From NCBI RefSeq assembly GCF_026571515.1, contig NW_026864618.1, positions 62,001 through 126,000 of the forward strand: a DNA stretch of 64,000 bases, given 5' to 3'. Under the pieces are notes generated by a model that worked only from the letters and a program-made list of their open reading frames with translations, was not told the origin of the DNA and made no database searches. The translations under genes were made by a program, and so were the position numbers. The stretch is from Ruditapes philippinarum (lineage: Eukaryota). Shown piece after piece: positions 14,846 to 47,147 of the stretch. Each line of letters begins with the position of its first letter. The stretch's first letter is position 1.

Positions 14846-14936
14846 GCGTGACGTCGGGATCACTTCACTCTTTTATTACTACAATATACTTGTTCACTAT
14901 GTGATGAAGCATTACCTCTAGATCGTTACTATATAA
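14846..14936 (+). promoter_or_regulatory. Putative core promoter of copy D: CRE/ATF-like site + TATA box
   Basis: gcgTGACGTCg at 14849 and TATATAA at 14930 (81 nt spacing versus 87 nt in J), about 200 nt before the ATG. Confidence 0.55.
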
Positions 14937-15136
14937 CAAACTCTGCAATACTTGCTTTAATCACTTTATATTACTTTACTGCGTTATTGATAAAACGGTG
15001 TTTAAACTCTGCAGTGATCTTCAGGTTTTACAAAGCGTATAACTGGTTAGTGCATGCTTAACATGAATGTGAGCTTATTTTGTTTGATTTAAGATAGTTA
15101 AATATAAGGATATCTTAAGTTTTAAAATTAATTGAA

Positions 15137-15302
15137 ATGGAATTACAAAAGGGATTATATTTAATTTTGCAATTGTTTGGGATTACATTTATCAACTGTG
15201 AAACAAAGATAGCATCTACTGGATTAATTGAAGATGCACCGAAATATGGGACATATCCACATAAAAGCTCAAATGACCAATACATGGATCCTTGCAAAGC
15301 AT
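15137..15302 (+). CDS. BMP1: BMP1/Tolloid first coding exon, variable copy D (intact; sister of A)
   Basis: MELQKGLYLILQLFGITFINCETKIASTGLIEDAPKYGTYPHKSSNDQYMDPCKA plus T, donor GTAAGA at 15303, phase 1; upstream TGACGTC (14849) and TATATAA (14930). Confidence 0.78.
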
Positions 15303-18300
15303 GTAAGATTTTTTTTTTCCATTTTATTTTCAAATTTAATATTGATTTAGAAAATAGTGCTGTTTTTGTGTGTGAAGCTTCATTTTGATTTCCCTTAAAT
15401 GTTAAAATATATAAAGTGATTACATATAATTAATTATTGGATAATGATATTTAAGAGTTTTCTTTTATTTTTATTTTTAATTTTTAGATATCTCCTGTTG
15501 CACATTTTTGCCAAGCATTACTTATTATTCATATAACATACCATGCTCTACAACAATAATTATATTCTATAGTTTAATAGGGAGAAGGTTACCAATATAC
15601 GAAATTATACGAAATAGACAAAAAAATGTTTAAAACTATATCAAAATTTACAAACTTAAACTAAGATGTGAAGAATTTAAATGTTGCACGTGTAGGTTGG
15701 TTGCATTTATATTGGTAATTATTTAAATCTTCAGGATTTTAATAAAAAGAACACCTGTTCTTTCATAAAAAAGAACAGTTCTAGATTTCATTCATCAAAT
15801 AACATTTAAACCACAAAAATGATTAAAAAAGTGCAGGAAATAAGATATCTTTCCGTTTGGATTTTTGTCTATTTTACAGACAAACTTTTACTGAGTTACA
15901 TTGACACAAAAAGATTGCATTTCTAAACCAAACCTAATAAATTTCCCTGTTGATTTGATTTTAAATTGCTATCCATATTTTCGTATTTTCTTCTGAATAT
16001 TTATTATTTTTTTTAAAATGTCATTTCAAATATAGAATATTTTATATTTATCAATAATTTTAAATGGAATAGATAGAAACGTGGCTAAAGTATAGATACC
16101 GAAACGGCTGTTAATATCGTTGATTAATCTAAAGAGAATTGAAACCACTGGCTTTAAAACATTCAGTCAAAATAAATGTAATTAATTTGGAACGTCGTAA
16201 ATGTGTATAAATGAAATATTAATTAGATATTTAAAAAAACAACATTTTTGCACAATTTGACTCAATATTTCCTCGAATTTCTTGCTTTTAAACACTGAGA
16301 TGAAAACATAAAAAAAAACAAGTTCATGTGGGAATTCGCTTTTTGATCTCTAGCCATTTGCGGCACAGAATGAAGTTTGGTATGAAAGACACGAAATAAA
16401 CCAGATATTCATGATAATTTCTGTCGGTAGTATTAACAGACATGTACATGACAGTTTCAATTAGAGTTAATTTTGATTATGAGTGTCTGGTGATGATGCC
16501 TCGTGTTAGGATATGGTTTGCTTTCTATGCAAGTGATTTCTGCTGACGATTAAATGTATCGCTTTTAACAGACCAATAATTCAAGCATAGTTATTTCATT
16601 GGAATGGGTTGAAATTGTTTGGTAGTTAATGCATTTTTGTATCGCAATGAACAATTAATATAATTGCATGCTAGAAATTTCTTTACACTTTACATTTTGT
16701 AATTTCTGTCAGCATTTGTTACACTTTGTAAATATCGAGTTAAACCAAATTTACAAACTAAATGTCCTATGAGTTAAAGGAAAGCAATAACAAATGCAAT
16801 GTCTCCAACCTTAATTTTGCTAACCATTTTTCTTGTATTTTGATTCCTTCTGTTCAAGAAAATACAGACGGGCTTCAGGTCAAATACCCCTAAAATGTAT
16901 AGCGTCACATGTACAATTATATTTTAAACATTGTTAGAACAAAACGGAAACTAGATCAAAATCATGTATAAAGATATTCTTCAATGTATAATTGAAAAGT
17001 ACAACTCATCGCCCTATTTTCTTGACATGACGGCATTGCAATATTTACCTATACAACTAATTGTTTATTGTGTGTACTTTATCAATTTGATACATCATCA
17101 AAACACCAGCAGAAATATGTAGACACGGAAACATGCAGACAAAATCCTAACAGTACATTATGATATCCAAATCTTTGTAAAAAAACGACATATGCACGTC
17201 TAAAAACATGTAAGACAATGTCATCATGCATAAGTATTTACTGACAGGTTCTTGTCATTTCAAATTTAGATACATTTTGGTTAAAGAACCCTTTGCGAAA
17301 TACATTTGTTATGCCAATCTTACTGCTCTTCTTTATTTCAACACAATACATTTGTATTACTGAAAACTCTTTACGGTCAAATTCCTTGTCAGCGTTTCAT
17401 AGAAAAGCTTAAGTTTATCCTAAGTTTTATGACCATGAAATCAACTTTAGGACTTACTTAAGACCGTTTCAATAAATGTTTTTTTTACCTTCAGTCAAAG
17501 ACTAGACTATCATTTAATTCATTTTCCTGAGTAAGGTTAAGAAGTGCAATGGCACACCCTTTTATTATCAATCTGTCAGTGCTCATCTGTATTTCTGTTC
17601 AGAAATTAAAAGGGCCATGAAATAGGAGACATAAGTTAAGACGGTTTCTGATCTCAGTTTTGATTTTAAGACTGATTTTGTACAGAGGACTTCCAATGGA
17701 TCCGTCACTAAAAATTAAAAGTCAACATGAGAAAGAAGTTAACTTGTCCAATTTATGAAACGTTAAACACATCATGTTGACCCCGACGTTGTCTTTGCTC
17801 CAATTTAACAAATACAAATTTATATCCTGAAATTCTAAATTCTTTTTTAACAGACATGTTGCAATTGTATAATTGATTTAATTGGAGCTGAAACGAAGTT
17901 TTATTAATAAATATTATAAGATATTTCCCGCGAAACGTAACATTTGGACTCGAAACAGACATTTTTATCCATACAGTTGTTTTACAATTATAACATGGTG
18001 TTCTGCTTCCTGTATATGTGAACGTTTTATTCAACACCATCAGGTCCCTGGAACACATGTAGCAGATTAATTTGTAGATGAAAAATGCATATTCAGCGAA
18101 ACTATAATCACGAAGAGTACTTAAAGTCAATTATCAATTAGATTTATTTAATAAACGATATCATATCTATGCCTAAGTATTCTCTCCAAAATTGAAAAAT
18201 TGTCCTTAGTATTTAATTTACTTCAAACCCAACCTGTCCTATCTCTAAATCATTTTAATTGCGTAAGCGCATTATATTATTTCATATATTACTTATATGA

Positions 18301-21300: not shown

Positions 21301-23655
21301 CCATCTCTTTACATTCCAAACACCACCTGTTCATGAAGCAAATGTTGATTTTTTTGTATCATTTATCATTTAATAACACTCAAAATAGGGGATCAAATAA
21401 TTGATATAATTGATACTTGAAAGAGTTGTATGTACGGTCGATCTTTACTCGTTTAATAGTCAAAATTGAATTGATAATGTTCTAAAGAAATCTTAACATC
21501 ACACATAATTAATAGTCGTCATATTTTTCTATTTGATTTTAAAAGTCTTTTTTTTTCATTCATTTAAGTTGTGCCGTAACTGTTGGTCATTATACCATAT
21601 GATTATAATGTGTATCAAAAATATATGCTGTAGGTGGAGTTTAATACGAAATTAGTTTGTTTTAACAATAAATATGGAGTACACATTTCGCCAAATATTT
21701 GCCAAGTATCTGAGAGATATAAATTGTTTAAAATGCCTTTGCCACTAATGTCACTCAAAGCATACAATACTCTCCCATAGCAAGACTCTTGTCACAAATG
21801 CCAACCCAAACATATGAAACACTTCCATGACCAGATTGCAAACAACAGAGTTCCTTTTTTACCTCATGTATTCTAGTTTTTCACTGATTCTGATTGTTGA
21901 AGTGGAAGCTCAAAAAACAAAAATATAGAAAATAACTAGTCAGTAGAATAAACAGTGCCTTGTGGCTGTAATTTGGTATAAACGGTATACATGTCCTGTG
22001 TGTATGTCTTTTTAGGAGTTTTTATAATTCTTATAACAATTATGCACTTTTAAAATTCTGAGACAAAAGAATAAAAAAAAGAAAAAGAAAGAAAACAAGG
22101 AATCAAGAAATAAGGATAATGATAGGATTAAGAATAAAAAAAGCAATAATAAGTAAATGAGGTAGAAAACTAACTGAAAATGAACTATGAGGTTTAAAAG
22201 ACATAGAATCATATATATCTGCATTAAACGGACTACTCAAAAGCTCATTTATGGCAATTGATTAAAAAAGATAAGTGTAACAATTGTGCCAAATAAGACA
22301 TGTTACGGGGTCTGCATCAAATAATGTAACAAACAAAACGTAGAAATAAAATAGCAATAGTTGTAAAGAGCGTGTTTTATTGAAAACAAACTAGCAGAAA
22401 GCACTGATCTACCTTGCACGTGATCAATCAAAGAGTAATAACGAACATATTCAGCTGTAGATTTTATATTAAAACTATTACACAATGTTTACGTGCACTG
22501 ATGAACGAGGTATGTTGATTAATTATATAATCTCTTTACAATACTCGTAAAATATATTTTTGCAATCTTATTGACAGCAACAAAATCAATAATAATATTA
22601 TCATTGTTAATGGAAGGTAAATCAATAGTCACATATATATACAAACACGTTTTCGTACTAAGACTTTCTATTTAACAGTTGTTTAACAACAAATAATAAA
22701 TTTCTTACCGTTCTCCGGAGGGTCTTAACCTTTACGATGACCTTGTTATTTTATTTATTTATTTATTTTTTGCTCTAAAAGACTCGACTATCTATCTCGA
22801 GGGTATTTGTTTACAGTTGTATCGAGGTTTTGCGCGACTTTCCGCTAAACAGTTACCCGAGAGCTAGAGATCCCCGTGATTCTTTTTCTTGCATAATACA
22901 CATTAATCATATTTCGGAAAGAAATAACAAAAACTAATATTTTCATTTAGCACCTTTTTATTATATAACCGTTTACGTATGAATTTACAACCACTCATTA
23001 TCGAAGAATGACGTAAAATTATTCATAAAATGCGCGTGGGAATGACGATTTTTAAAGCATGCAACTTGCCTTACACTAGGTGTGTAAGACAGGTTTTTTT
23101 CTAGCACCGGTGTAAACAGTTGATAATCCTGTCTTGTGTACAAGAACAATTCAAATATATTTAGCATCACTGTGATTGATGATGTTTACAGTATAAAGCA
23201 TATCAATAATATATAATATGCACGCCTCTATTTCATCCTACTGAAAATTATTAAATGAGAAACATCTGTTTTACATATATCTTTATTACTTCTTATAAAA
23301 GCACCTGACACAATGTGAATTTTTAAATCTGAGGCGTCACTGCTATTATTATGCCCAAGACATTATCTGCATAATGCTTTCACAAAAGATTGGACAAACA
23401 ACACGCCTTAAATGTGAACTTGACACGCCTTTATTTCCCACTTTGCTATTAAATGAGAAACATCTTTTACAGACTCTTTCATCAAATAAGACGCAATATG
23501 AATTATATAATCAGAGACGTCATAAGAATTTCCCGACAAATGATTTAACAAAGGTTTGGAATAACGACACTCATAACAAATCAAAATTCATACTATCATT
23601 TATTATTCATTTATATAAAGTTCGTTTTAATGATGACTGATTCGGTTATTAATTG

Positions 23656-23706
23656 TCCACATTAAACCTCCTCAAATGACCAATATCCTTGCAAAGCACG
23701 TAAGAT
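23656..23706 (+). pseudogene. First-exon relic E (3' fragment only)
   Basis: tccacattaaacctcctcaaatgaccaatatccttgcaaagcacgtaagat aligns to the end of copies A/D (tccacataaaagctcaaatgaccaatatatggatccttgcaaagcatgtaagat) with small indels; ATG and signal-peptide part are deleted, GTAAG donor retained. Confidence 0.75.
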
Positions 23707-25335: not shown

Positions 25336-27650
25336 AAAAACCATCGTCTTACAGTGGCGCTCCAGTAGGGTCTATCTGGGATGTTATATTTTGTGATATA
25401 TATGCATTCCCTTTTTTAGCACTTGGAATTTCTAATGATTATTTTAGCGCTTACTGTGAGCAACTTTTCATGATTTACAACCGCTCGTACAGCAATTTAC
25501 AATTTAGGATAACAGACAAGAAATAAACGAGATTATCATGATGATGGTCATCAGCAGCCATGTATCTGGCATTATACTAATTAAGTTATGAGTATTTGGT
25601 ATGGATATCTGTGGGTATCACTTTTTTCTTCTTTACTTGTCTTTTCTTGTACACGTATACAAACAATCTAAGGATGTCCATATATACATCGTCTACAAGA
25701 TAATAAATTATGATAAACTTTTAAGTCCATCCACATTTAACTTTACATAAATCTAGAATAAAGTCGAAAAGGAAGTGGGATGTAAATTTAGGTGGATGAA
25801 TACTTCGTTAACCGAAGTTTACATGAACAATTATGTTCTTAGGAAATAGAACAATTAGTACAATCATATTTATTAAGTTCATTTATATCAAAGGTTTTAA
25901 TTTTAAGTTATACCATTTTTCTAAAAGTACCTACAAGATGACAGCAAGGAATAATCGAATGTCTTAGTTATACATGATATAAATAGTAATAGTAATAGTA
26001 GATTAATGAATGAAAATATAATAGTAAACAGTAGTTACAGTCCCGGCAATCATGTTTAGATTCTTAAGATGCGCTTAACATGAAAATGCCACTGAAATTA
26101 ATTCATTAATGGAATGTTCCATCAGTTATATTAAGTCAAAGCAAAACAATAATTTCAAGTTTAATATTTACACTTAATTGTACGTATGTGATAAATGTAT
26201 AACATTATAAAAAGCTTTTCGTTGTTTTCTTTGTGAATAAAAAAGAAAAGAAGGTAATATACTCCATAATAGAAAATGCAAATGAAAAATGCAGGAAACA
26301 AACGCCATTTAAATGTTACAAATTAATTCGATATTTCTTTTATATTTATGAGCTTTTCGATTGGATAAATTTAATGAGTTGTATTACTTTTTGATTCAAA
26401 ATGTGCATGTTTCAAAATCAAAGCTGAGAAAAATTATTATACAAATTTAGAAGCAAAAGGGTTGATGTGTAACTATTTGTGCTAAACGAATAACGTGCTA
26501 CGCATATTCAGTGTATTAAGTGTTAATATTTTAAAGTTCTTCATACCAATGTAAGATAAATTTTTATCAAAAGTATTCGTATGAAAGGATTCAAGTTCAA
26601 CTTATAGAACTTAAAATTAAAAGAATTCAAATCCGATTATGCAGCCGATATCAAAACCAAAGCATATTCAGAAAGAATAACTTTGATTGTTTCAACACAA
26701 AAAGAGCAACTACGATTATAATACACCACTGCCAAACGAATGTATATAAAAGTGTATATATTAAGTTATTCAATTCACTGTGACTTAGATGTATGTTGTT
26801 ATAGCATAAACCGTATCAATTGTATAAAACAGACACGCCCTCCCTTTTCCCACACTTTTATTGCATGTGTAACTATTGCTTTAGTGACGCAATTTAAATT
26901 TTTAAACCATAAACGTCATTTTTATGATGCGTAAGACATTTTCCGTTTTTATACTTTAGCAAGGGATTGAAATGATAATTCATACAATTATTTATTGTAT
27001 TATTCATTCATAGGTAAAGTACATTTGGTGATGAATGATTTATTATCTGATGTTACATATATTCTCAATACTTACCTATTTATCTTGCTTGTGCATCAAA
27101 TAAACCAGGTAACCTTGGATGGATATTCTTGTGTAGAGGTATCTGCTTTATGATGTACATAATGCATTTATAAATCAGAATAAATCAGATATTCAGTTCA
27201 TGTTGTACTTGTTCTTGGTGTTCTTTTATAAATGTTTAAATTTTGTCTCATGCCCACAATACCCAATGTTGACTGATCCAATCATCGGATGTGATTTACC
27301 AATAAGATAATTGTTGCTTGCTTTTGACGTCTTGGCAACTCCGCAGTATAACTACTTTAATAGACTCGTACACCTTGTCTTTTGATCATTGTTATATAAC
27401 AATTATTGCTTTAATCATTTGATTTTACTTCACTGCTTGCTCTATGATGCTTGTGTTTAGATGAATTGTAAATTAATAAGCACTTGTAATAAAAACTTGT
27501 AGTGTCTATTGTTTTAGAATGTGGATAAATGGTTAATATAAATTCCACAAGAAAATAAGAAATTTGTTTCTTAGGAGATATTGAGAGTTATTTGTTTATA
27601 TTGAGGTAAACATTCTTTGTGTTTATTGATCAATTAACAATTAACTAGAA

Positions 27651-27812
27651 ATGGAATTACAAAAAGAATATGTTCTATTGTTGTGCGTTTTACTGCATAT
27701 ATTTTACAGTTTGTCTCTATTTATTGTGGACTGAAAACATCATCTCGTTATTCTTAAACAAGTATATGCAAGTATGATAATCATTATTTATTAAACGATC
27801 GTCCATGAAAAA
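27651..27812 (+). pseudogene. First-exon relic F (highly diverged)
   Basis: Starts gaaATGGAATTACAAAAAG as in A/D (MELQKEYVLLLCVLLHIFYSLSLFIVD then stop); a ccatgaaaaagtaag remnant lies about one exon length downstream; homologous promoter module upstream (TGACGTC 27325, TATATAA 27393). Confidence 0.6.
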
Positions 27813-27831
27813 GTAAGACTCTTCTATCTGT

Positions 27832-30366: not shown

Positions 30367-31187
30367 TTTTACTTAAACAACGACGATTAAAAAATAGCTG
30401 TATGGCTTCAGTTAAAAGGTACAACGAGGAAACATCTTCGCAGTCTTACAATTATCAATGAGACACAATATCAAATATTTTTTAAACCATGGGCGTCACT
30501 ATCATAATGCTTAAGACATTCTCCGCATAATGCTTTAACAACGGAATGGAATAACATAACTAACAAATCAAAATTCAAACTATAAGTACTTTCCTTTCTT
30601 TTAATCATACATATGAAAGTACATTTTAGTGATGAATGAATTGTTACATAATCTTCAATACTATCATTTTAACTTCATTTTTGTACCAAATACACCGGGT
30701 AACCTTGAATGGTCTTGTTTAAAAGTAACTTCAATATGATTGACATGTTGTTCATAAATAAGATATCAATTTTATATTTACTTGTTTTTGTGTTTGGTAT
30801 TTTGTTCCAAACACTTGACCCCAAATGTCGTCTGATTTTATCATCTAAGGCAATATTTCGATAAATAAATTGTTGCCTTAGCATGACGTCGTAGCAACTT
30901 TGGTATACCATTACTACAACATACTCGTTCACCATTTGTATAAAGCATTGTCTTATTTGATCATTACTACATAAAACACTGCAAAACATGCTTTGATACT
31001 TCAGATTACTTTACAGTGTTATATTTTTTTGTATTGTAAGGAATGTGATAAGCAACAGTGTTAGTTCACTTGTTGGGTCAATAAGGTTAAAATTCGGATA
31101 ACTAGCTTACATAAATGCTTAATGGAAATGAAGAAGCGTTTCGTATTTTTGTTTCAAATTCAAGTTCATTTACTTAATTGACCAGTA

Positions 31188-31354
31188 ATAGAATAACAAA
31201 AAAGAATACATATCATTTTGCATTTGATAGCAATAACTTTTTCTAAACTGTGATTCCAAAAACTGATATGTTGGATTTAATGAGGATGCACCTAAATTTG
31301 AAACTTATATGCAAAAGCTATCAAATGATGAATATATAAATCCATGCAAAGCAT
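31188..31354 (+). pseudogene. First-exon relic G (full length, inactivated)
   Basis: ATG changed to ATA, in-frame stops, a +1 frameshift and no GT donor; 3' part still reads VGFNEDAPKFETYMQKLSNDEYINPCKA. Confidence 0.85.
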
Positions 31355-34300
31355 ATTAGATGATTTCAATTTTAGTCCCTGCTCTGTTTGGACTTAAATC
31401 CATGTTCTCTTCCATTTATTAGACTTTATGATAGGTATTGTATGACTCAGAAACTAGACTCTTTTTAATTAAAGTGAAATAGACAAAATTCAGTCAAAAA
31501 TGAAAATATTCTCTCTTTATAATCACTTTACGATTGAAGCTGTTTAAAATGTAGTACTTAATACTCAAAAAGGAGATTAAATGATTAAGGTAATTATAAG
31601 TCCTGGAAAGGAAATATCTGCTTAGCACTAATTTAAGGACACGTAACTTGAATTATATATAACGAAATAACGTGCACTTAGATAATCTTATTTAATCAAA
31701 AAACACAAACATCGATCAAAATTATTAACGGCTCTGTCATTACAAAGACTCAAAAACAGTACAAATTAATTTCCTCTATTTCTTGTTCGTGCTAGAAGTG
31801 AATAGCAACGGTATTTATTAAAAGTAAAAAACAAAATGAAAGAAATATCGGCAAAGTAATGTTTAACTGAAATATAAAGATAACCGAAATGATGAATATT
31901 TGATAAATTTGAGATACATTATCTGATTGAACATGCAATAAAACGTTTAAAAGTGCTTAGAATCAGACTAACATTTGCACTAAACGGGTCATTGATACTC
32001 AACTAGTCATCTATGGCATTTGATTAGAAAATGATAACCGAAGAATTTATGCCAAAACAGCATGTTACATGGTCTGTATCATAAAGTATAACAAACAAAA
32101 CCACAGGAATAAAATAACTTTATAACACCAGCAGAATAGGGTTGGCCCACCTTGGTTTTTGTGATCACAGAGTAATTAAGAACGTATTGAAAACGCTAAT
32201 AATCAATTATACAATGGTTATTTGCACTCAAAACATGTTTTCAAATATATGTTATCACAATATTATATAATAAAATATACTTCTATTCCTTTTTGATGAG
32301 TGATAATGATGATTAGGTAATGATTTATGAAACTATTGTAATGATACATTTTCCTGAATTGCCTATTTACTGTATATACAAAAAAAATGTTAGGCTTTTA
32401 TGATCTATTCAAGAAACATTTTTTTCGCTGTTTTGCTTGAGGGTGTAGTTGAATTGGAGGATAATGTTGAAAATACGGAATTGCTTGTAAATGTCGTCAT
32501 CGTTTAATCAGGTCAATTGACAACTATTCGCATTTGACTAATTAAGGTTAGGTTTTTGGCGTTCTTAAGGGATTCCGTGGTTCTTCTCTATTCTATTAGA
32601 TTTAATAACGATTATTATTTTAAGAACAATTGTCTCACAGTTGTGCTTCAAAACGAAATATCCGTTTCAGTCTATTCGAGGTCTTCTGATTGCAGTATTT
32701 GACATTCTTCTGCATGTTTCAGCGTTTCATGTCGATTTCCTTTGATCTCTACCCGCTGGTACAACGATATGCAATTTAGAATAACAGACCAGAAATAAAC
32801 CAGATTTCCACAAAGATTTCTGTTACTGGCATCAACAGACATGTACCTGGCAATTTCAATAAGTGTATTACAGTTATGAGTATCTGGTGTAAATGTCTGT
32901 TGTCAGAACACTTTTCTTCCCCTTTTCCAATCTATTGTTGTTGTTTTTATATTAATGAGCTTATAGTCAGAGTTTTAAGGTTACATAATTTCGCCTTATC
33001 GAAAAGAACCTACATGATGGCAACAAAACTGAATTAAAATAACCAAGTATCTTAGTTTAAAAAACAAATCGTGTCTTATTGTTGTTGTGGCTGTTGTTAT
33101 TGTTCAAAGAAAGTAAATGACACACTGATTTTCTCTATAGCAAACAATAGTAAAATAAAACAATGCCACATTTTAGATTATAAATTGATTTTATATCTTT
33201 ATAATATTGCATGTGTTTGTCTTTATGGTTTATTATAATGTTATTTGATCTCATTCCTTTCTTTTTTAATGTAAAATGTTGCATTAGTTTTTTGGGGTTT
33301 GCTTTTTTAATTTTATATTTGTCATCATACAAAAACAAACAAACAAAAATCAATGAACATCTGTATGTTTGAAATAGATAATGTTTTAAAGCTTCTCATA
33401 TTTCAGCAAAAAAATGAAAAAATAACAGATCAAAGCTTATAAAAAATCAGCACATTTTTATGATAGTTTTTACACGCATGTGTTTAATGATTGCAAGATT
33501 GTGTTTACAGTTATCCCGATCATCTTTTAATATAGGCTTACCTTAGTTTGAGTTTAGATAAACGTCTTATATATATATTTGAACAGTATTCTTACTTCAG
33601 ATTCTGGTCAGATTGTAAGGCTATTCGGATTGTCATTTCTATATATTTATGTGAATCATAAACGTTTGGAATGTCTGGGGTAATGTTAAAGGCTCTTTTG
33701 AAACAATAAAATAGTGTTTTGAGAGTAAAAAAAGGATTGCCGTTGGTGTACATTGACTAATTTCTAAAAGATGCTCATGTGTCTATACCAGCACTATAGT
33801 TTGCTTATTTGCTTCAAAATGACAGAGATGAAGCCAACTGTTACTGGTTATATTTTATTCACTCTATATATCGATGATTCACTCATAACGGCTTTTAAGA
33901 GGCTGGTATTAGTTTATAACTTTTTAATAGAGGAATAAATGTGTATCGAATGTGACAAAGCAACATATTTACCAAGTAGTAATTAACCAATTGATTATTG
34001 TTGCTTGCACGTGACGTCTCGGCCACTTCATAGTAAAACTGTTTTAATATACTCGTACACCTTGTGGTAAATTAGTGTCTTTTGATAATTGTTATATAGC
34101 AATACTTACTTTATTCATTTGTTTAATCGTTTGATTTTACTTCACTACCTGCTCTGGAATGCTTGTGTTTAGATAAAATGTAAATTCATAAGCACTGTTT
34201 GTAATAAAAATAACTTGGAGAGTCTTTTGTTTTAGAATGTGGATAAATAGTTACTAGTAATATAAATACCACAAGAAAATAAGAATTTGTTTCTTATGAG

Positions 34301-34374
34301 ATATTGAGAGTTATTTGTTTTAAATTGAGGTAAACATTCTTTGTGTTTATTGATAAATTAACAATTAACTAGAA

Positions 34375-34530
34375 ATGGAATTACGAAAAGAACATTTTCT
34401 ATTGTTTTGCGTTTTGTTGCATCTATTTTATTGTTGGCCTCTATTTTATGTAGACTTAGAGTTACATCTTTTCTTAAGTCTTAAACAATAATTCTGTATG
34501 ATAATCATTGTTTACCCAACGGTCGTCTTT
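34375..34530 (+). pseudogene. First-exon relic H (duplicate of F)
   Basis: ATG 34375: MELRKEHFLLFCVLLHLFYCWPLFYVDLELHLFLSLKQ then stop at 34489-34491; upstream flank nearly identical to that of F; no DPCKA or donor. Confidence 0.6.
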
Positions 34531-36894
34531 GAAATAGTTTGACTCTATTTTTTGCTTCAGTGAAATGAATTAAATATAATCAGATCTAAAGTTCAACATT
34601 TCCCTCCTGAAGAGGAATGGAAAACGCCTAAAAAGTAAATATAGCACTTATCATATGCTTATAACTGCTAATAAAATGCAATACAAGTACTACAATCCTA
34701 CACAAATGTTTAAAAAGAAAGGATGAAAGTTTTATAAAGAAAGTAATATAATTCGTATTAATTTATCAAAAGTGAAAAGGTGAATACACTTTAATATATC
34801 ACACGTGTTCAAGTTAAACATTGATACCTTTCCAATAAAAGCACGTGTTTGCGACTTGATGTATTACTAGCATAAAATTAGATTGCATCTTTACATATTC
34901 TAAACATCTGTTTATGATTTTTGATTTTTCTATCAAATAACATTAAATACCCAGGAGAGGAGATTAAATAATTAAAGCAATTGATTCTGAAAATGAAATA
35001 TGTGCTTGGTTGAATTCTATTAGTACGAAGTACGAAACAATTGTGTACAAACAGTTTTTATTTTATCATAGAAACGAACACCAACATCGATCCAAACAGT
35101 TCTGTCATAACAAAGGTAGAAAAACGGAACAGCAGTAATCATCTTATCGCTTTCTTGTTCGTGTTTATACGGAATAGCTGTAATAATTAAAAATGAAAAC
35201 AAGAAAAAAGAGTTATCGGCAATATAATAATTTTATTGAAATATAAACATAATGGCAGTGATGAATATTTGATTAATTTGAGATAAGTTAACCGACTGTA
35301 AATGTATTTAATCATTCTAAATACCAAGAATCAGAATATGATTTGATTAGTAAAAGATGAATGTAACATTTGTGATTAAAACGGATGTACAAACAAAAAC
35401 ATAGGAATAAAATAGCAATAGCTGAAAAGCGTGTTTGTTTGAAAACAAACCAGCAGAAAAGCACTGATCTACCTTGCGCGTGATGAAAAGTAATTAAGAA
35501 CACACTCAGTAATCGTATTTTCCAGCATTATATCTTGAAAAAATGTGTTATGGTTGTTATTAATGCAATGTTTACGTGCATTTATTAACGAAGTGATATA
35601 TTCAGTAATATTAAATAACTTGAAAATAACACATAATTATCTTGTTTGTCAATATTCATCTTCCTTTTGACAATTAAACAATTACAATATCTTTAATAAA
35701 CGTAGGTCACTTAGAAGTTATAAACAAAAATAGTGATATCTTTTTTGGCCGATATTTTCATAAACTTATAATTGAATTAAAGTGATGAGGCATGCTTCTC
35801 TCAATTTTTTAGGATTATACGCCAGCGTTACAACAATATGCAACTCAAAATAACAGACGAGAATTGACCAAGAAATCTTTAATAGCCAGCCTCTTCTAAA
35901 AGCATCTTGTTTTACAAATTTGACATTCTGGTTAAGGACTTTTTCAAAGATGATAAGTTCCATCTGCCTGTTCTAATTTTTTATCTTTAGGCTAAACGAC
36001 AAGCTTCTTAATTTTGTCTTCTTGATATTATAAAACAAGCTAAAGAAATTGAAATTAAATATTTGAATCTTAACATGCCGATTTTACTTAAACAACAATT
36101 AAAAAATAGTTGTATGGCTTCAGTTTAAAGGTTCAACGAGGAAACATCTTTGACAGTCATACAATTATCAATGAGAAACAATATGAAATATTTTTTTAAA
36201 CCATGGGTGTCACTATCATAATGCTTAAGACATTCTCCGCATAATGCTTTAACAACGGAATGGAATAACATAACTAACAAATCATAATTCAAACTATAAG
36301 TACTTTCTGTTAACCATTCATATAAAAGTACATTTTAGTGATGAATGAATTGTTAAATAATCTTCAATACTATCATTTTAACTTCATTTTTGTACCAAAT
36401 ACACTAGGTAATCTGGAATGATCTTGTTTAAAAAATAACTACAATATGATGTACATGTTGTTCATAAATAAGATATAAATTCTATATTTTACTTGTTCTT
36501 GTGTTTGGTATTTTATTCCAAACATTTGACACCAAATGACTTCTGATTTTATCATCTACGGCAATATTTCGATTATTGAATTGTTGCATTTGCATGACGT
36601 CGTAGCAACTTTGGTCTACCATTACTACAATATACTCGTTCACCATTTGTATAAAGCATTGTTTTTGATCATTACTACATAAAACACTGCAAAACATGCT
36701 TTGATACTTCAAATTACTTTACAGTGTTAAAATGTTTGTATTGTAAAGAATGTGATAAGCAACATAGTTATTAAACTTGTTGGGTGCATTAGGTTAAAAT
36801 GCGGATAACTAGTTTACATAAATGCTAAATGGAAATAAAGAAGCGTTTCGTATTTTTGTTTCAAATTTAAGTTCATTTACTTAACTGACCAGTA

Positions 36895-37061
36895 ATACAA
36901 TAACAAAAAGGAATAAATATCATTTTGCATTTGATTGCAATAACTTTTTATAAACTGTGATTCCAAAAACTGATATATTGGATTTAATGTAGATGCACCT
37001 AAATATGGAACTTATATGCAAAAAAACTCAAGTGAAGAATATATAAATCCATGCAAAGCAT
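36895..37061 (+). pseudogene. First-exon relic I (duplicate of G, inactivated)
   Basis: Shares the ATG-to-ATA change, stops and frameshift of G; 3' part reads IGFNVDAPKYGTYMQKNSSEEYINPCKA; donor lost (gcattctag). Confidence 0.85.
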
Positions 37062-40000
37062 TCTAGATGATTTCATTTTAGTCCCTGCTCTATTTGGACT
37101 TAAATCCATGTTCACTTTTAAAATACTTTATATTAGGTATTGTTTTATAACGATTATAACTGAAAAACTTGACTATTTTTAATTCAATTGAAAAAGATAA
37201 AATTCAGTCAAAAATGATAATCACTTGACGTTTGAAGTAATTTTTAAAAAGCAATACAAATGTTACTATTCTAAACCGATGTTTAAAATGAAAGAAGTAG
37301 TAGGGTCTATAACCCATATCAATTTATCAATTTAAATGAATAGGTCAGAGCACCTTAATCTATCACACAACAATGATATATTTCAAGTATTGCACGTGTT
37401 TATTAGTTTTTTCATTACTGATATTAAATTAGATTCCATCTTTACGTGTTCGTTCTTAAAGCAAACGATGAATTCCGATATAATTTATCAAATAAATCTT
37501 AATACACAAAAAGGAGATTAAATAATTAAAGTAATTATAAGTCCTCGAAAGGAAATATCTGCTTAGCACTAATTTAAGGACACGTTTAACTTGAATTACA
37601 TTTAACGAAAGAACGTGCACTTAGATAATCTTATTTAATCAAAAAACACCAACATCGATCAAAATTATCACCAGCTCTGTCATTACAAAGACTGAAAAAC
37701 AGTACAAATTAATTTCCTCTATTTCTTGTTCGTGCTAAAATTGAATATCAACGGTATTTATTTAAAGCAAAGAATAAAATGAAAGAAGTATCGGCAAAGT
37801 AATGTTTTATTGAAATATAAAGATAACCGCAATGATGAATATTTGATATATTTGAGATACATTATCTGATTGAACATGCAATAAAACGTTTAAAAGTGCT
37901 TAGAATCAGACTAACATTTGCACTAAACGGGTCATTGATACTCAACTAGTCATCTAAGGCATTTGATTAGAAAATGATAAGCAAAGTATTTATGCCAAAA
38001 CAGCATGTTACATGGTCTGCATCATAAAGTATAACAAACAAAAACATACGAATAAAATAACTAGAGCTAAAGAGAGCAAAGTTGTTTGAACACCAGCAGA
38101 ATAGCACAGGTCCACCTGGTTTTTGTGATCAAAGAGTAAGAACATATTTAAAACGCTTATTATCAATTATACAATGGTTATTTATACTCAAAACATGTTT
38201 TCAAATACAATCATGTAATCACAATATTATGATAATAACATATACTTCTATTCCTTTTTGATGAGTGATAATGATGATTAGGTAATGATTTATGAAACTA
38301 TTGTAATAATACATTTTCCTGAATTGCCTATTTATTGTATATACAAAAATATTAAGTTTTTATGATTTATTCAGAAACTTTTTTTTCGCTGTTGTGCTTG
38401 AGGGTGTAGTTGAATTGGAGAATAATGTTGAAAATAGTGAATTGTTTGTAAATGTCGTCATCGTTTAATCAGGTCAATTGACAACTATTCGCATTTGCCT
38501 CATTCAGGTTAGGTTTTGGGCGTTATTTAGAGATTCAGTTTTTCTCTATTCTAAGTAAAAGATTTAACGATCTTTATTTTAAGAAAAAATGTCTCACAGT
38601 TGTGCTTCAGTACGAAATATCCGTTTCACTCTATTCGAGGTCTTATAACTGCAATATTTGAAATTCTTCTGCATGTTTCAGCGTTTACGGGGAAACAAGT
38701 TCATGTCGATTTCCTTTGATCTCTACCCGCTGGTACAACGATATGCAATTTAGAATAACAGACCAGAAATAAACCAGATTTCCACAAAGATTTCTTTTAG
38801 TAGCATCAACAGACTTTACCTGGCAATTTCAATAAGTGTATTACAGTTATGAGTATCTGGTGTAAATGTCTGTTGTCAGAACACTTTTCTTCCCCTTTTC
38901 CAAACTATTGTTGTTGTTTTTCTATCAATGTGCTTATAGCCAATAGTTTAAAGGTTACATAATTTCTCCTTATCAAAAAGAACATACAAGATGGCAACAA
39001 AACTGAATTGAAATAACAGGGTAGCTTAGTTTACAAAACAAATCATGTCTTATTGTTGTTGTGGTTGTTGTTATTGTTCAAAGAAAGTAAATGACACACT
39101 GATTTACTCCATAGCAAACAATACTAAAAGTTAACTATTTTAGAATAAAAATTTATTTTATATCTTTATAATATTGCATGTGTTTGTCTTTTTGTTTTTT
39201 TTAATTATATTTAGTATCGTTCCTTTCCTTTTTTAATGTATTAGTTGCATTATTTTTTTGGGGTTTGCTTTTTAATGTTAATGTTTGTTTTCATACAACA
39301 AACAAACAAACAAAAGCACTGAACATCTGTATGTTTAAAATAGATAATGTTTTATTTTATCTAAGCTTCTCATATTACATCAAAGCTTATAAAAAGTCAC
39401 CACAGTATTTAGATAGTTTAAGCATGTGTTTTATGTTGGCAAGATTGTGTTAACTTTACAGTTAACTTTACAATTATCCGCTAATTTTATAATATAGACA
39501 TACCATGGTTTGAGTTTGGATAAACGTCTTATATATTTGACCAGTATTCTTATTCCAGACGCAAAATTGGGATTCTGGTCAGACTGCAAGGCTATTCCGA
39601 TTGTCATTTCTATATATGTATGTCAATCATAAACGTTCAGAAAGTATTGGGTAATAGCAAAGGCTCCTTTGAAACAATAGAATAGTATTTGAGAGTAAAA
39701 AAGGCATGCTGTTGGTGTAAATTGACTAATTTCTAAAAGATGCTCATGTGTCAATGGCAGCACTGAACATTGCTTTTTGAAATATTTACAAGAAATATGT
39801 TTGTTTTAAAATAACATTTTATTTTGGTTAAATTTTAATTGACTAATATATCAATGATTGATTCAGGGCGGGTTTGAAGAAGTTAATATTAGTTACTAAC
39901 TCTTAATAGAGGAGTAAATGTGTATCGAATGTGACCAAGTAGCATACTGCAAAGAGCGTATATTGAATTGAACATTAAACGTACAAATAATAATATGGTA

Positions 40001-43000
40001 ACAGATGAGAAAAGTACAGTGATATTTCACATGTGGTTTAAAGATCTCATGTGAAAAAGGGTAATACCCAGTAAACAGTAATCGGTTTGATCGAGTTGTT
40101 TTTTGTTTTTGTTTTTTTTTTCGTGAGGGAAAATAGAAAATGCAGTATATGCCATGCCCCTTGGCACCGGCTTAAGCTGTAATCAGATTTCAAAATTATT
40201 GAATTGTATTTATATTGTGATGTGTTGTTGCTTTTTTGTTAAACAGCATGAAATCATTCTAGATTTATTAATTTATTGGAAAGTCATGCTGGATTGATGG
40301 TTTTATAAATTGTTCATATCAGTAAATCGCCATTCAAGTGATAAAGCAATATGCATTCTGAAAAACAGACCGAAAGTTAATTTCATTGCCATGTCGGATT
40401 CTTAAAACAGTGTTTACAGACATGTCCATGTCAGAGTCAATTAACATTAATTTTCAATTACTGAGGGCTGGTGTTTTCAATGTAAGAAATGAAAAAGGCA
40501 TTTTCGTCTTTTTACATATTGATAAAGACTTAATGATGTATTTGTAAACAAATAAATTGCCAAACACTTAATTTCAAAATATATACAACAGGAGAATATA
40601 TGAAAATATTTAACAGCAAGAAAAAATTTCGGTATACATGTATGTTAATAAAATTATTTAAACGAATTCGGCAGTTAAGTTAGTAAATGTGTCACGTGAC
40701 TTTTAAAAAACAACAACAACAAACAAACAACAACAAAGAAAAAACAAACAAAAAACATGATTTTCTCAAATTTATATCGTAAGATATAACGTTCGCTAAT
40801 ACATTGTTTATTAAAAATTAAAAAAAATAATATGGAGAGTTTTAAGAGTTTTGATATTTTTTTTCCTTTTAAAACGTTAGTTTGAAATCGTTGTTTGTGA
40901 GATGCCTTAGCTCCATACATATATTTATAGCTTGAATATTTCTACAGCCTGACAGACTGACAAAAAGTCTACTTTCCGTCTCAGAAACGCTGAATTAAGC
41001 CACAGACAGTCAGAACTGTATGCAATAAATGTCCTCAATTATTATATTACTATACAAGCAAACTAAGGAAAATAAAATATCTTAGCAACAATCATCAACC
41101 TCTAGTCAGAAATAGTTTGAGTCTCTGTACATGCCAATTTTAGCGTATTATTCAAAGGAAAATTGTTATGATATCACCTACAGTAACGCATCGAGTATGG
41201 TTCCTAATTAAAATATACACATACAATTAATTATTTTTATTAATGCATATATACATGCATATTTTTAACAGTCTTTCATAATCCTCCTTTTGAACCTTTT
41301 CTAAATGCATCCTTTAATGTAACGTTTAATAAGTTGAATGAATAATTAGTTTCATTAACAGTTATTCATTATCTAAATTACCACAGTTTGTGTCTGCAAC
41401 ATTGTGCAGTACAAACATTCTTTACAACTAGAATGTGAATGCAAATAACAGCACTTTTAATAATGTTCGGTACGAATCACACAGGTATTTTAACACGGGA
41501 GGTGCTCATAATCAGACTAAATTCTAGAGTACAATGTGGTTTCTTTTACCTCATACCCACAGACTCGAATTTAAACAGCCATATATACATGTCTGATGAT
41601 GCTATTAACGCCAATTATCACAAATACGTGCATATCATTCCAAAAATGTATTTTCACTTTGTTGGCAGCTTAAGATGAAAGGAGATCTGCATAAACTTGT
41701 TTACTCGTAAAACTGTATTTGTATTCGTAAAAACTTTTTTTTTTAAAACATCGAAGAAGGCAAATTGAATATGTTGCAAGCTCGGCTTCAATAGACGACA
41801 GTGATGAATGCAAGCTAGCTTTCGAGCCCCTTGCACCGATCTTAACAGGACATAAAAATGTTTTTTAATATAGAATTTCATAACATAGCCTATGTTCTTC
41901 ATACGGCAGTGATCATGGAACCTTCACTGTGACACAATTATGCCATCCTTTTTTTCTCAGCTTCTTTATATAACTTTTATTGTATTTGTTAGACTACTAT
42001 TTGCGGACCTTGTTACATGAAGTTTTGGCATATTTCTACACTTATCTCTGGATAATCAAATGATTTGTCGCTGATATGTATAATAACAACCAGTTCAGAG
42101 GAAATATCTGTCCGATTCTAAATATATCAACCATATAAACCGAGTAGGTTATATCATATTTAGACGCTCGTTAAAGATATTCTATGCTCAAATTTTATAC
42201 TTGAAAAAATTCATAATTGCTACACAGTCTATTTTAAAACATTAAATAAATGTGATTTTATTTTACTCAAAGAAAATATGTTATGTTTTTAACTTTTACA
42301 AACTGTGGGGGCACATAATATGAATATATAGCGTCATTAAAAAACTGGCATTTTTTTTAAAGAAAGGACATTCTTTACATAATAGGGAATAATAGGAAAT
42401 GCAGCTTCCCATACATTGTTTGTGTATTCTTTTATTCAAATAAGATACATCTAATAAGAATTTCATAGATTATAATAAATTTCTACGATAAATGTATTTT
42501 TCTCAAAGATGAGCATAGTACATCTTTAATTTTTGCGTCTAAAAATTGAATAAATGCACAGTATGCATCATTGTAATTGTTTAAATGTTATATACATTTT
42601 TGTAATTAGATATTTCGTTTCTGACATATGCACAAGTAATGTTATTATAATTTATAGTACTGAAATGAGCAACCGTAGTAAAACAAGTGTTAAATGATTA
42701 TCATTAATTTATAAAATAGGTACACAATACGGCTAATTTAAAGAAAATTTACTTGTTATTAAGATTTTCAAATGGACACTACAAAAAACTCTTCGGGTAC
42801 ATGTATAATTGCGGCAACCGTTTAAAAAACTTAATGAAATGTACACATAACATTTGAGTATTTCATTTTACTGTTTTGTCTCGCTCAACGTTTTAACTGG
42901 AATATAAAGTGGAGATGTAAGCAGTCGTAACACCTCGGCCTGCTGGCGGTCATGTGACCAGTTCACACCAAGATCAGCCGTCTGCGCTGTTCGTTGTTCA

Positions 43001-44616
43001 GTCAGTCCAACTTTTAAGAATTTCCCTAAAATGATGGACAGGTCCATTTACAAAATTTAGCGTAGCAAACTTTATACACTTTATCAAAGTTTAGCATTAC
43101 ATCTTAATCACTCCTAATGGCTTTTATAGATAAATTTAAGTGTAGAAGACCGCATCGAACATTTAAATGCATTTACAAATAGCTTTGATAAGACAAAATC
43201 AGAAATGGTTGAAACAAAAGCACTTTACACGTTATTTATTAACATAAATCTCACTCAATTGAATGTCTTGCTTTGTACTTGGACTAGTCTTGCAACCAGG
43301 TATAACTTTATATCTATGATTATAAATTCGCGATATGTGTTTGTCATTATCGTTGTCAGTACTTAAACTGTTTGGAACTTACAAGACTTCTATAAATTCT
43401 TAGTACACTGGATTATGAAATATGTTTGATGTAGTTAGTTTTGTCACAAAGTGTTTGCCATTTACTCATATTTGCAGTTTAACGTCACCGTTGTGCTTAT
43501 AAATATGTACAAAATACTTACTTTCATCTCGGTGAAGAACCATGTTATAGTGCATTTTTGTCTGATTATATTGTAATTGTAACAAAACTATATAGTAAAT
43601 GATTAAAAAAATCTTGAAATAAGAACTTTCTTATTAAACAGGTATGATATGCCAGAGGAAAAACTGATTTTCAACACCATTTATCCACTTCACTGGGCTA
43701 ATGCAATGTGCTTTGTGAAAAAATTCTTATTATACACCACAATTCCACATAGAATTCCGGAAACAAAGTCCTTAGAACGTCTGGATGCGTTTTTATTTAG
43801 ATTTGTGGTAGCGGTATCTGGCGTTGAATAAGCGGTTTTCAGATCTTATCTTTCTAAAGATTATATCTGAAAAACGCTCAAAACGGCAAAATTAAAAATG
43901 TTGCAGGCTCGGTTAACACTTTATTCTTTAGGGGTAAGGAACTCAGTGATAAGAGTTGAATAGATTTTTGCGTGTCTACTTCTTCCATGGGCTTTCAATA
44001 TGATAAAAATTACTCTCACAATGGCTTTGGTATTCTGTATACCAGTATGTTCAAAACATAAATAACCATCTGAATTAGAGACATTTGCGCAACCTATCAA
44101 GAAAAGAGTTTTAATTTTATACTTTGCGTGCTTTTATCTTTACAGTTCTAGTGACAGTTTAATAAATTGAAGTATCAGGTAAAAATGTATAATATAAATC
44201 AAATTAGCATAATTAAAAGTTAAGTAAAAAATACGAGAAGCACGTGTTTGCACGATAATACTTATTATATATTTCTTACTAAATTTTCGTAATAAAAATT
44301 TGAACCAGAAAGCGTTACCCTTTGTTCAATCTTTATGTTTTTATACAGTTGATAATTTATCTTTCATCCAAAGATAACAGTAAATCTGGTTCCTTCATAT
44401 GTTGCGGTTTACCATCACTTTTATATGGTCAATTAAAAATAAACAGAAGTTAAAATCTAACACTGTTTTAAATGAGAAAAGAGCAATTCTGTGGCTTCTG
44501 GAATCTATCCCAGAATGCCATTATCAATGGTACGTAAAATTTGAACTTTTCAAATATATTTCTCAAATTAGCAAATTGATAGATTTTTTAAATGAAGTGA
44601 CAACCATGTTGTCGAT

Positions 44617-44905
44617 TAAAGGCACACTAGACCCCAGAAATGCTTTTATTTCTTATTCGTTAGAAGCTTTTATTTTTTGTCGTCCTGTTATAGTTTCCAA
44701 AAAGTTACTCATTTGTCCCATCACCTGAACCATCTTTTGCTTCTGTTGCTTTTTTTGGCAATCAGTAGAAATATAGTAGTTTCGTATTTTGTAGGAAAGT
44801 AAAAAAACTAATATGTTTGCATTTTTGCTACTTTCAGGACAGATATATTCACATTCAGCGCTACTTTCTTCATATGATAAGCATCTAAAAAGCTCTAAAA
44901 CCATT
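44617..44905 (-). mobile_element. Dispersed MITE-like repeat family copy
   Basis: ttaaaggcacactagaccccagaaatgcttttattt...gttactcatttg...ttttggcaat is the reverse complement of 25190-25335. Confidence 0.65.
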
Positions 44906-45154
44906 ATTTAAATGTTATTATAATTGTTCAGTTCTGTTATTATTGAAACTATTGTTTGCCCTTTGTAAACTGTGAAATAAAATATTCTTTTCTGAAGCAT
45001 AATTTGCCTTTAAGTTGTAATATGTCTTTATAAAAATACATTCTCTTGTCTATAAATGGTTTGTCCATAAAAAGTTCAAACAATTAAACAGATACTCAGT
45101 TAATCAGAGACTTGCTTGATAAACGTAAATAAAAAAAGATACCTTAAATGAAAA

Positions 45155-45293
45155 CGTTGGTCTAGTGGTTAAGGTTTCTGCCTCTCAAACAAGGACTAGT
45201 GGGTTTGACTCCCACTGCGGCCACGACCATGTTTCCTAAGATGACGTAAGTATTGGTTAGTGTGTGTTAGGAAGCGGACTAGAGAGTGATTCG
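45155..45293 (+). mobile_element. tRNA-derived SINE (degenerate)
   Basis: Pol III box A tggtctagtggtt and box B gggtttgactccc, followed by a non-tRNA body (ccacgaccatgtttcc...ggaagcggactagagagtgatt); no complete cloverleaf. Confidence 0.7.
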
Positions 45294-47050
45294 TCGGGCT
45301 AACGATATTTAAACTTAAATTTAATTTTTGTATGCTTCAGTATACTGGAACGCAACGGATGAAATTTCTCCGGACATCTGTTATAAAAGTGCAGAAATTT
45401 TTTTATGCTCGGCAAATACTGTGGAACATTGAGGTTATTATTCTATATCAAATATGTTTGATTAGGAAGATCTAGTCATTAATTTGCACTTTTAATTTCA
45501 CTTGATGCCTTTGTGTGGTTGTTCCCATCTGTTAGCAACAAAATCAGGGTATTAGTTTTCGGTAAAATCGTTTTCATGACACAAAAGCATGATTAATATT
45601 GGTTTGTTTAATTGCCAATTTGAAACCTTACCCTGAAAATGTGTGAACTATCCACGCAGAAAATTTTACAACAATACCGCAGTAGCATCTAATATCTTCA
45701 ATATTTCATTGTTTATTAACATGTCAGTTTTGTTATTTTACCCGTTGATGTATAAATTATTTGACATTAATAAAGTTTAAAATAGACACTGAAAAGTTTT
45801 ATTTCATGGTTTCCAATGACGCGGATGCTTTGACCGACAGAACTGAGGTCTCAGACATAAATTTAGCAGTTAACCAATCAAATTGCTCATCAGGACGGAA
45901 CGCTTTCATTGAGGACTGCGCAAGCGTGAAATGAAGCGCTCGCGTCAACGCAGTTTGACAATCATAACGCTTCTGCTGATCGGTGATGATAGGAGAGGGG
46001 GTAACCCTAATGGGATTTGAAGCGCAAATCAGACATTGTTATTTTGACGGCATAAATGGTTCGGTAACATTTTGTCCCACTTTTAAAAGTCATAGAAATA
46101 AAGCATAGGAATGGCATTGATGTTATAAAAGACATACCCATATAATTTACATTTATTTCTTATAGAATTCTAAACAAAAGTTGTTGTTTTTGCTTTCTTT
46201 ATAAAAAGAGTCTATATATCAAGAAATATAATCACGCGTACATTTTGTATTTAATTTTTCTGATTTTACGTTATAAGTAAACTATTAGATAGGCTTGAAT
46301 GCTTTTTTGATCCGGTATTGGAAAGACAGAATGGAAAATAACGCTGCGGTCGCCTTATCGTTCACATAATTCACACTTTGGTTTAATTTCACATTTATTA
46401 AGGTCCCATTGTGGTTTTTGTGGTCAACAAGATCCTTGGAGAAAATTTTACGACAATCTGCAAGCGTGATAACCAGACGAAGATCTTGTTACAGCCTTTT
46501 ACATTACCCACTAGACTCTCGTAAATGGTTTCATGTCAAAATTACAATGTCTGACAAAAATGTTATCTTTTACATTCACTCAGTGTACCCAATTTTTATG
46601 GAGTAGTATTATTAATACAGTAAAGCTTTTGATACATTTTTTTTTTTGTATTTAAAAAAAATGATTTTTTTTATCTATTTCGTTGTGAAAAGATTTACAG
46701 GCACTTTCAGATTTACGAAATAGATTTTTTTCAATCATGATAAAAAATGTAGTGTGACTTTGTTTATGTTGACATTGAGAGGCAGTAAAACGCTCAAAAT
46801 ACATTTGCGCAGTTGAAAAAATAATATATTTAAGCATGATTTGCCAAAAGGCTTAATAAATCTCTGGAATTAATTAATAGAAAAAAACCAACACGTAGGC
46901 CGAGTGTATAATAAGGGTGCATCTACTTAATTTTCATTCAATGAGATATCCAGTAAATATTATTAATATCAGTTTTACAGAGAGACACCAGAGTGGTTTC
47001 ATTCACCTGTTCATGGAAGAAAGGGAACTGTTAAGTTCATCTTAGCCTAC

Positions 47051-47147
47051 GCGTGACGTAGCGGCAACTATCCTAAAGTGTTATTGTACACCGGTTTACC
47101 GTGAGAGTATTATATTGTGAAACTTGCTCTCTGCGTTTGCTATATAA
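47051..47147 (+). promoter_or_regulatory. Putative core promoter of copy J: CRE/ATF-like site + TATA box
   Basis: gcgTGACGTAg at 47054 and TATATAA at 47141, about 280 nt before the ATG; the same arrangement recurs upstream of paralogous copies. Confidence 0.55.

Follow-up and report, generated by a model that had tools for sequence, protein, structure and literature searches.

A tandem array of first exons, duplicated together with their upstream module, ahead of a tolloid/BMP1 gene in the clam Ruditapes philippinarum

In a 64,000-nucleotide (nt) stretch of the Ruditapes philippinarum genome (contig NW_026864618.1; 30% G+C; hereafter the window, whose positions are used below and whose features lie on the + strand unless said otherwise), short promoter-like motifs, TGACGT(C/A) followed by a TATA-like word, recur ahead of tandem cassettes. 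These cassettes are 12 copies of the 5′ end of one tolloid/BMP1 protease gene, spanning about 59 kb. The motifs are probably the best-kept parts of a module that was duplicated with exon 1 into an array, in which the live copies are transcribed and two of them, D and J, are spliced to a shared gene body. A sequence-only reading of this DNA had likened the layout to that of the clustered protocadherins, and in this respect it was right: tandem first exons, each behind a related module, are spliced to shared exons.

Twelve copies of a first coding exon

Ten of the copies (A to J) are located inside the window, preceded upstream of it by Z2, at contig position 50678, and Z1, at about 53860. The repeat unit consists of an upstream module of about 200 nt, a leader and a first coding exon of 55-57 codons, running from the putative signal peptide to DPCKA. 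The exon copies contain a hydrophobic stretch (Kyte-Doolittle 2.1-2.35 over 11 residues) and finish in DPCKA and a phase-1 GT donor, matching the acceptor of the single exon 2 at 52361. When the 1.41-Gb genome was searched with exon J, nine candidates were scored, every one of them on this contig.

Five of the 12 exon copies are intact: Z2, A (5046..5211, with a GT donor at 5212), B (8892..9063, also with a GT donor), D (15137..15302) and J (47427..47592). Public proteins named 'tolloid-like protein 1' from R. philippinarum have N-termini identical letter for letter to window exons, and the RefSeq models XP_060567546-551 carry the A, B, D and J N-termini on one common tail (A in XP_060567551.1, D in XP_060567549.1, J in XP_060567550.1; XP_060567548.1 begins at the second Met of B). 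An AG near 8912 in B could be an internal acceptor, and two RefSeq models (P0049, P0051) begin at MDPCKA, without a signal peptide. In all ten pairs among the intact copies, the ratio of non-synonymous to synonymous substitution rates (dN/dS) is 0.17-0.36 (each p<0.025, the pairs not being independent), with dS between live copies of 0.2-1.7, a pattern that indicates purifying selection on all five.

The remaining seven copies are dead or decaying. Z1 has a stop codon in frame. Copy C (10911..11082) has an open frame, reads DPWKA, carries an altered donor (GTTAAG) and shows a dN/dS of 0.74 against B; it is likely decaying. E (23655..23699) is a relic of the 3′ end of the exon with its GT donor, for which a module was not found. 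The sister copies G (31189..31355) and I (36895..37061) lack both ATG and donor and are interrupted by stops, in frame in G. In the sisters F (27651..27700) and H (34375..34420), homology is limited to the first 15 or so codons, with a stop after 27 codons (F), or to the 5′ part (H); both retain an ATG and open short hydrophobic frames of 27 codons (F, 27651-27734) and 38 codons (H, 34375-34491) before a stop.

Splicing of D and J to the shared exon

Sequences from four runs belonging to four studies and different animals (X1, X5, X7, X24; three contig sets presumed to be RNA and one raw RNA run) were aligned to D (14720-15400) at 80% likeness. In all four, the loose ends at the donor read exon 2, and cover was zero at 15341-15400, within the intron, and at 14720-14788. 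One 513-nt contig (X5 record 9) joins 490 nt of D to 23 nt of exon 2, and three contigs (X1 record 6, X5 record 12, X7 record 20) contain J with 23 letters past its donor. D, over a distance of 37 kb, and J are spliced to the shared exon 2. Letters specific to A were detected in three of the four runs (X5, X7, X24), and B, which is below the 80% cut-off relative to D, was outside the reach of this comparison. More than one variable exon is thus joined to the constant exons, directly for D and J, by inference for A, and for A, B, D and J in the RefSeq models. The D contigs have their ends within or close to the module and carry no further exon ahead of it, these being contig ends and not mapped starts.

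An initial alignment of four raw RNA runs to 33600-53500 was dominated by repeats, one piece of 36 nt alone drawing about 10,000 reads, and the junction of J with exon 2 did not appear among the 15 joints that it listed. In its two cleaner runs, at low depth, the bins of H and I had depths of 0-0.03 and the bin of J 0.2 and 1.7.

A shared protease body and its predicted product

Exon 2 (52361..52612; phase-1 acceptor, YGFWGDIA...) is followed by further shared exons at 54693..64000, located by tblastn with the protein P0052, which encode the rest of the prodomain, an RTKR site, the astacin domain and the first CUB domain; the gene continues beyond the right end of the window. Pfam finds an astacin domain, then five CUB and two EGF domains, in four proteins that map to window exons (P0052, P0048, P0046, P0056), and this domain content identifies the gene as a BMP1/tolloid protease. 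In other animals tolloid frees BMP from chordin and processes matrix proteins, and tolloid proproteins are processed by signal peptidase and furin-type cleavage. In the clam protein, the variable part corresponds to residues 1-55, RTKR is at residue 233 and the astacin domain begins at residue 246; signal peptidase and a furin-type cut at RTKR are predicted to remove the variable stretch. The array would in that case lack one feature of the protocadherin type, a variable exon that diversifies the mature protein.

Around residue 713 of the shared tail, some models of both genera considered here include, and others lack, a segment of four residues, VSIN in the one clam and VSLN in the other (P0049/P0051 and P0047/P0044); comparison of these models identifies it as a conserved 12-nt alternative splice.

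The upstream module and its motif words

The six TGACGT(C/A) sites and seven TATA-like words reported by the sequence-only reading were all found in place. Module D (14809..15015) contains TGACGTC at 14849-14855 and TATATAA at 14930-14936; F (27285..27476) TGACGTC at 27325 and TATATAA at 27393, with a 14-nt deletion between the words; G (30844..31054) TGACGTC at 30884 and TACATAA at 30968; H (33972..34188) TGACGTC at 34012 and TATATAG at 34093; I (36555..36762) TGACGTC at 36595 and TACATAA at 36676; and J (47014..47229) TGACGTA at 47054 and TATATAA at 47141. The spacing between the two words, 68-87 nt (D 81, F 68, G 84, H 81, I 81, J 87), also agrees with that reading. In module A (4723..4923), a profile match, TGGCGG at 4763 replaces TGACGT and TATATTA follows 82 nt on, at 4845, while the Z2 module reads TCACGTCA at the place of the core word. 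Module B (8609..8772; profile E 1e-5) is degenerate, with TGACTTC and no TATA-like word at the homologous place, and a piece of module C (10469..10558) was found by profile search. The module profile holds eight full copies (Z2, A, D, F, G, H, I, J), not six, and was built from these same copies. That a module is repeated ahead of most cassettes is borne out by these eight; the motifs, however, are only one part of the duplicated unit, and A has no TGACGT.

A minimal ATG-TGA frame lies between the two motif blocks in Z2 (about 415 of the upstream piece L006), A (about 4814), C (about 10529) and D (14899), is absent in F-J, and would be an upstream frame in longer transcripts. The leader of J (47258-47345) contains a donor-like GTAAGG (47266) and a strong acceptor-like site (47329), which may mark a 64-nt intron or a point at which non-coding exons from farther upstream are joined.

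The composite of the two words has six matches in the window against 0.09 expected, and none of 100 shuffles reaches six; this pattern was fitted to these sites, and shuffling is not an appropriate null model, since all six are paralogues derived from a single module of about 200 nt. Six more + strand TGACGT(C/A) sites lie outside any module, among them the only two full palindromes TGACGTCA of the window (4288, 50536). With the eight full modules and L013, a metagenome contig, presumably bivalve, that carries the same exon at 55% identity, the full cAMP response element (CRE), TGACGTCA, occurs in 0/9 modules and the CRE half site in 7/9. The half site is missing in the expressed copy A and in L013, both of which read TGGCG, and the common word is therefore nearer to TG(A/G)CG. 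To judge from the modules, a bZIP half site (7/9) fits this word best, yet it is dispensable in A. The TATA box consensus TATAWAWR, normally about 30 nt before the start, is found in none of the nine, with D, F and J one base off. A CREB/ATF element as a common key and a canonical TATA box, as had been proposed, are not supported by these counts.

Spelled out as a full model, the proposal would have a CREB/ATF site and a TATA box act in every cassette like the conserved sequence element (CSE) of the protocadherins, with CpG methylation setting promoter choice or competition and dead cassettes taking part in the competition. Besides the frequency of the half site, it can draw on the finding that no invariant run shared by D, F, G, H, I and J is longer than TGACGT (P 0.018, column permutation) and on the G-I pair of dead copies, in which the module is more alike than the flanks (0.954 vs 0.906, P 0.034). 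However, with Z2 added the P value of the invariant run becomes 0.24, and across all eight modules no invariant run of four or more is left, so that no single short element is present in all promoters, as it is in protocadherins. A is among the most used copies though it lacks the site; F and H lean the other way from G and I, with 0.83 in the module vs 0.91 in the flanks; CpG is not being lost in the region (see below); and the H and I bins are nearly empty next to that of J. The consensus of CTCF, allowing up to three mismatches, shows no excess (65 matches vs 65.6 expected), and none of its matches falls at a common place across modules. We consider this model improbable.

An even less probable idea is that the element is a GC-rich Smad1/Mad-type site, through which BMP would feed back on the protease that releases it from chordin. 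The Mad/Smad1 consensus GRCGNC (PMC9508838) fits six of the nine modules, A included; on the other hand it is a short word, is absent from J, Z2 and L013, and in none of the nine does GRCGNC or GGCGCC have a Medea site 5 nt away.

Conservation of the module and CpG content

Among live copies, the block around the TATA-like word is 0.63-0.85 alike in all six pairs (control 95th percentile 0.59) and the core block 0.70-0.73 in D-J and Z2-D, compared with 0.48-0.59 for far-upstream and intron DNA (control 0.57), which is at or near control. In dead copies this pattern is not seen: comparing the F/H lineage with the G/I lineage gives a likeness of 0.63-0.67 for the core block and of 0.76-0.84 for the flanks that BLAST can align, G-I being the sole dead pair that leans the opposite way. 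The suggestion that the motif is better kept than adjacent sequence thus stands for both blocks among live copies and fails among dead ones, and constraint on the motif ahead of dead exons is not supported. Instead, it is proposed that dead copies retain the motif mostly because they are young. The survival of CpG, which had been thought noteworthy, needs no explanation, because CpG is not depleted in the window (observed/expected 0.60-1.17 over 32 bins) and is lost no faster than GpC, with CG kept in 0.78 of 217 cases and GC in 0.78 of 286 over five duplicated blocks.

The module was also compared with three foreign loci (L011-L013), which hold one exon copy each in 2.9-8.2 kb and are too short to judge arrays. 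Module J aligned with the sequence upstream of the L013 exon with a score of 60, reached in 0/300 shuffles, and the two best profile matches in the 15.6 kb of foreign loci correspond to the two blocks, which precede the exon in the expected order (E 0.013 and 0.61). Judged by this conservation, the module is a real footprint, kept among live copies and before the same exon in a bivalve-like locus. Of all copies, J lies nearest to the shared exons and resembles L013 the most, and it probably stands closest to the single promoter of the ancestor. The GTGTTATTGTA stretch of the J leader recurs in the leader of L013.

Weighing the proposed account

According to the account that we favor, the module would be the promoter-proximal region of the tolloid/BMP1 gene, copied together with the first coding exon. 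Transcription would start in or just before each live module, and the first donor met would be spliced to exon 2, skipping every downstream copy. With the peptide of the variable exon cut off, every isoform would yield the same mature protease, and the array would therefore tune expression, setting where, when and how much protease is made, and not the enzyme itself. New copies would arise through unequal crossing-over, and copies would become dead on losing their ATG or donor.

Several observations weigh against parts of this account. The signal peptide call comes from hydropathy and the furin cut from the processing of tolloid proteases in general. The splicing of A to exon 2 is deduced from its depth in X7 and from RefSeq, and no listed contig shows the junction; Z2 is shown transcribed only, by a Z2-type contig in one of the four runs, at a depth of 2.7. 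The eight RNA 5′ ends scatter from -215 to +62 relative to the TATA-like word, and contigs cannot show a start. The core block is at control level in three of the six live pairs, all with A, and Z2-J is borderline (0.57). Among the six clam copies compared, a match to L013 was obtained for J and G (8/300) alone, and the comparisons of the module with L011 (best 14/300 shuffles) and L012 were not significant. The use of copies, on the other hand, speaks for the account in that it differs between runs: contig depth in X1 was 173 for D and 64 for J, with no A; in X5, 59 for D, 62 for J, 31 for A and 2.7 for Z2; and in X7, 61 for A, 9 for D and 6 for J, while X24 held about five D, two J and one A reads; the order of D, J and A by depth flips between runs. 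Against this, contig depth is a poor measure of expression, the runs come from unspecified tissues of different animals, and the missing A in X1 may be copy-number variation.

The RNA 5′ ends bear on where transcription begins. For D they lie at 14795 (X7), 14813 (X5) and 14992 (X1 and X24, one of them a single read). Those of J (47035) and A (about 4630), which assume the absence of a 5′ intron, are upstream of both motifs, as are the first two of D. Four of the eight ends precede the core word and lie 106-215 nt upstream of the TATA-like word, and the other four lie at -7 to +62 of the latter; this pattern fits a start near the TATA-like word with additional upstream starts, or a role of the blocks in the leader. 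In the latter case, the blocks would act mainly within the untranslated part of the leader, or else as promoter elements downstream of the start, starts would be 20-55 nt upstream of TG(A/G)CG, and the TATA-like word would not be a TATA box. The contigs that begin ahead of both motifs agree with this, as do the lack of TATAWAWR in all nine modules and the position of the best cross-species block just downstream of the TATA-like word. However, half of the ends lie close to that word, including the two at 14992 from two studies; a thin tail of upstream starts suffices to extend a contig; and RNAalifold on seven modules gives no conserved structure (three pairs, -0.71 kcal/mol). A leader role is, in our view, unlikely, and we retain the promoter-proximal reading.

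Arrays in a second genus and the question of redundancy

In Mercenaria, eight models (XP_053392425-432; proteins only, not DNA) have seven distinct N-termini on one tail. These N-termini are 88-98% alike mutually and 66-80% alike to Z2, A, D and J, which are themselves 64-86% alike, and from the protein comparison both genera hold arrays without one-to-one correspondence. In a tree of 21 exon-1 peptides, 12 of the 18 inner branches are open and neither genus is a supported clade; separate expansion in the two genera is suggested by pairwise identity only, and the tree is too weak to tell it from gene conversion. Among the records listed, Mya, Sinanodonta and Potamilus have one full N-terminus each, which is weak evidence of absence. 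A protein search with exon J among longer proteins gave no match although such proteins exist, reflecting a limit of sensitivity. In Dreissena, two neighboring-numbered loci (P0009, P0072, P0073; 510-520 residues) match tolloid in its N-terminal half only and may represent a further type of partial gene duplication.

The array can also be explained without any regulatory division of labor. A promoter with exon 1 may simply duplicate easily, any copy that fires being kept in frame, so that the same architecture would arise by drift or plain dosage and differences between runs would reflect genotype, copy number or noise. The large share of dead or decaying copies (7/12), the high mutual likeness of the Mercenaria copies together with their lack of one-to-one partners in Ruditapes, which implies fast turnover, the predicted constancy of the mature enzyme and the use of RNA runs from different animals are all in line with such redundancy. 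Less easily accommodated are the long separate maintenance of live copies (dS 0.2-1.7) at a dN/dS of about 0.2, the changing rank order of D, J and A between runs and the occurrence of arrays in two genera. Redundancy of this kind is a serious possibility, which we would sooner doubt than accept. As to whether tissues differ in the starts from which they produce the one enzyme, distinct jobs and redundancy are about evenly balanced. More broadly, we tentatively suggest, as something with a fair chance of being right though short of probable, that venerid clams turned the tolloid promoter into a fast-turning switchboard, from which tissues or stages pick starts for an unchanged enzyme; this covers arrays that were separately expanded or homogenized, with 12 copies here and at least seven in Mercenaria.

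Other features of the locus

Between B and D (9441-14539) are three copies of a block of about 0.9-1 kb, 79-85% alike, the third of them inverted. At 43879-43914 and 53127-53413 lie fragments of repeats that are both abundant and transcribed, with about 10,000 reads in two runs; the latter fragment looks tRNA-derived by eye, though ARAGORN gives no tRNA genes, and a related element is apparently present at about 62840-63050. About 3.3 kb before Z2 (contig about 43655-47104), an open frame of 1150 codons preceded by one of 145 codons contains a reverse transcriptase domain (Pfam RVT_1, E 7e-40) and looks like a young non-long-terminal-repeat retrotransposon. A long poly-A-like low-complexity stretch in the upstream piece L001 (about 7287-7931) is possibly an assembly artefact.

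Comparison with known first-exon arrays

In the clustered protocadherins, a CSE of about 22 bp in all promoters binds CTCF. Pcdh alpha and gamma resemble the clam array in their tandem variable first exons behind related elements, constant exons and relic exons (PMC3333863; PMC1885805). The two systems differ in that the 55 residues encoded by the clam variable exon are predicted to be removed, no word is shared by all clam copies and the CTCF consensus is not in excess. A protocadherin variable exon, for its part, encodes the recognition surface.

The UGT1, GCNT2 and UGT2A clusters share with the clam array a signal peptide in each variable exon, constant exons, birth-and-death evolution with pseudo-exons and lineage-specific duplications (PMC1885805). 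Clusters of this type are described there as vertebrate-specific, and PLEC1, NOS1 and GR are also listed by Li and Wu as multiple-variable-first-exon clusters (PMC1885805). Variable exons of UGT1 encode the substrate-binding half and are under positive selection, whereas those of the clam contain no catalytic or binding domain and appear to be under purifying selection. Chelicerate sDscam genes offer an invertebrate parallel, with tandem 5′ cassettes duplicated together with their promoters and used differently between tissues (PMC4835542); sDscam cassettes, however, have two to four exons and their Ig domains diversify the protein, compared with one short exon in the clam cassette.

The clam gene has the same domain set as BMP1/tolloid astacin proteases in general, and automated RefSeq models already list its alternative N-termini as unlabelled isoforms. 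No description of a tolloid/BMP1 first-exon array was found in the literature searched on tolloid or BMP1, a search in which subscription journals were mostly outside the scope, and nothing on an array was found by title or opening of the abstract in papers on tolloid in Ruditapes. In PMC4988381 nothing was found on the prodomain or promoter.

Significance

Known arrays of variable first exons, such as vertebrate Pcdh, UGT1 and GCNT2 and chelicerate sDscam, mostly diversify protein. The clam array, by contrast with these in a mollusc, belongs to one protease with roles in development and matrix, and it recurs with different copies in a second genus. With the enzyme predicted to be unchanged, such an array would isolate the regulatory value of arrays of this kind. 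It is the array that carries the interest, the claims on the CRE, CpG survival and methylation being the weak part. The copies differ in the motifs themselves: A has no half site, B has neither word, and F-I keep the words before dead exons. RNA-seq, cap analysis of gene expression and reporters can therefore be used to test what bivalve promoters need. If the account proposed here is true, the clam would possess an array of protocadherin type whose diversity concerns regulation alone, and the live, mutated and dead promoters of this array would form a natural series for the study of mollusc promoter grammar.

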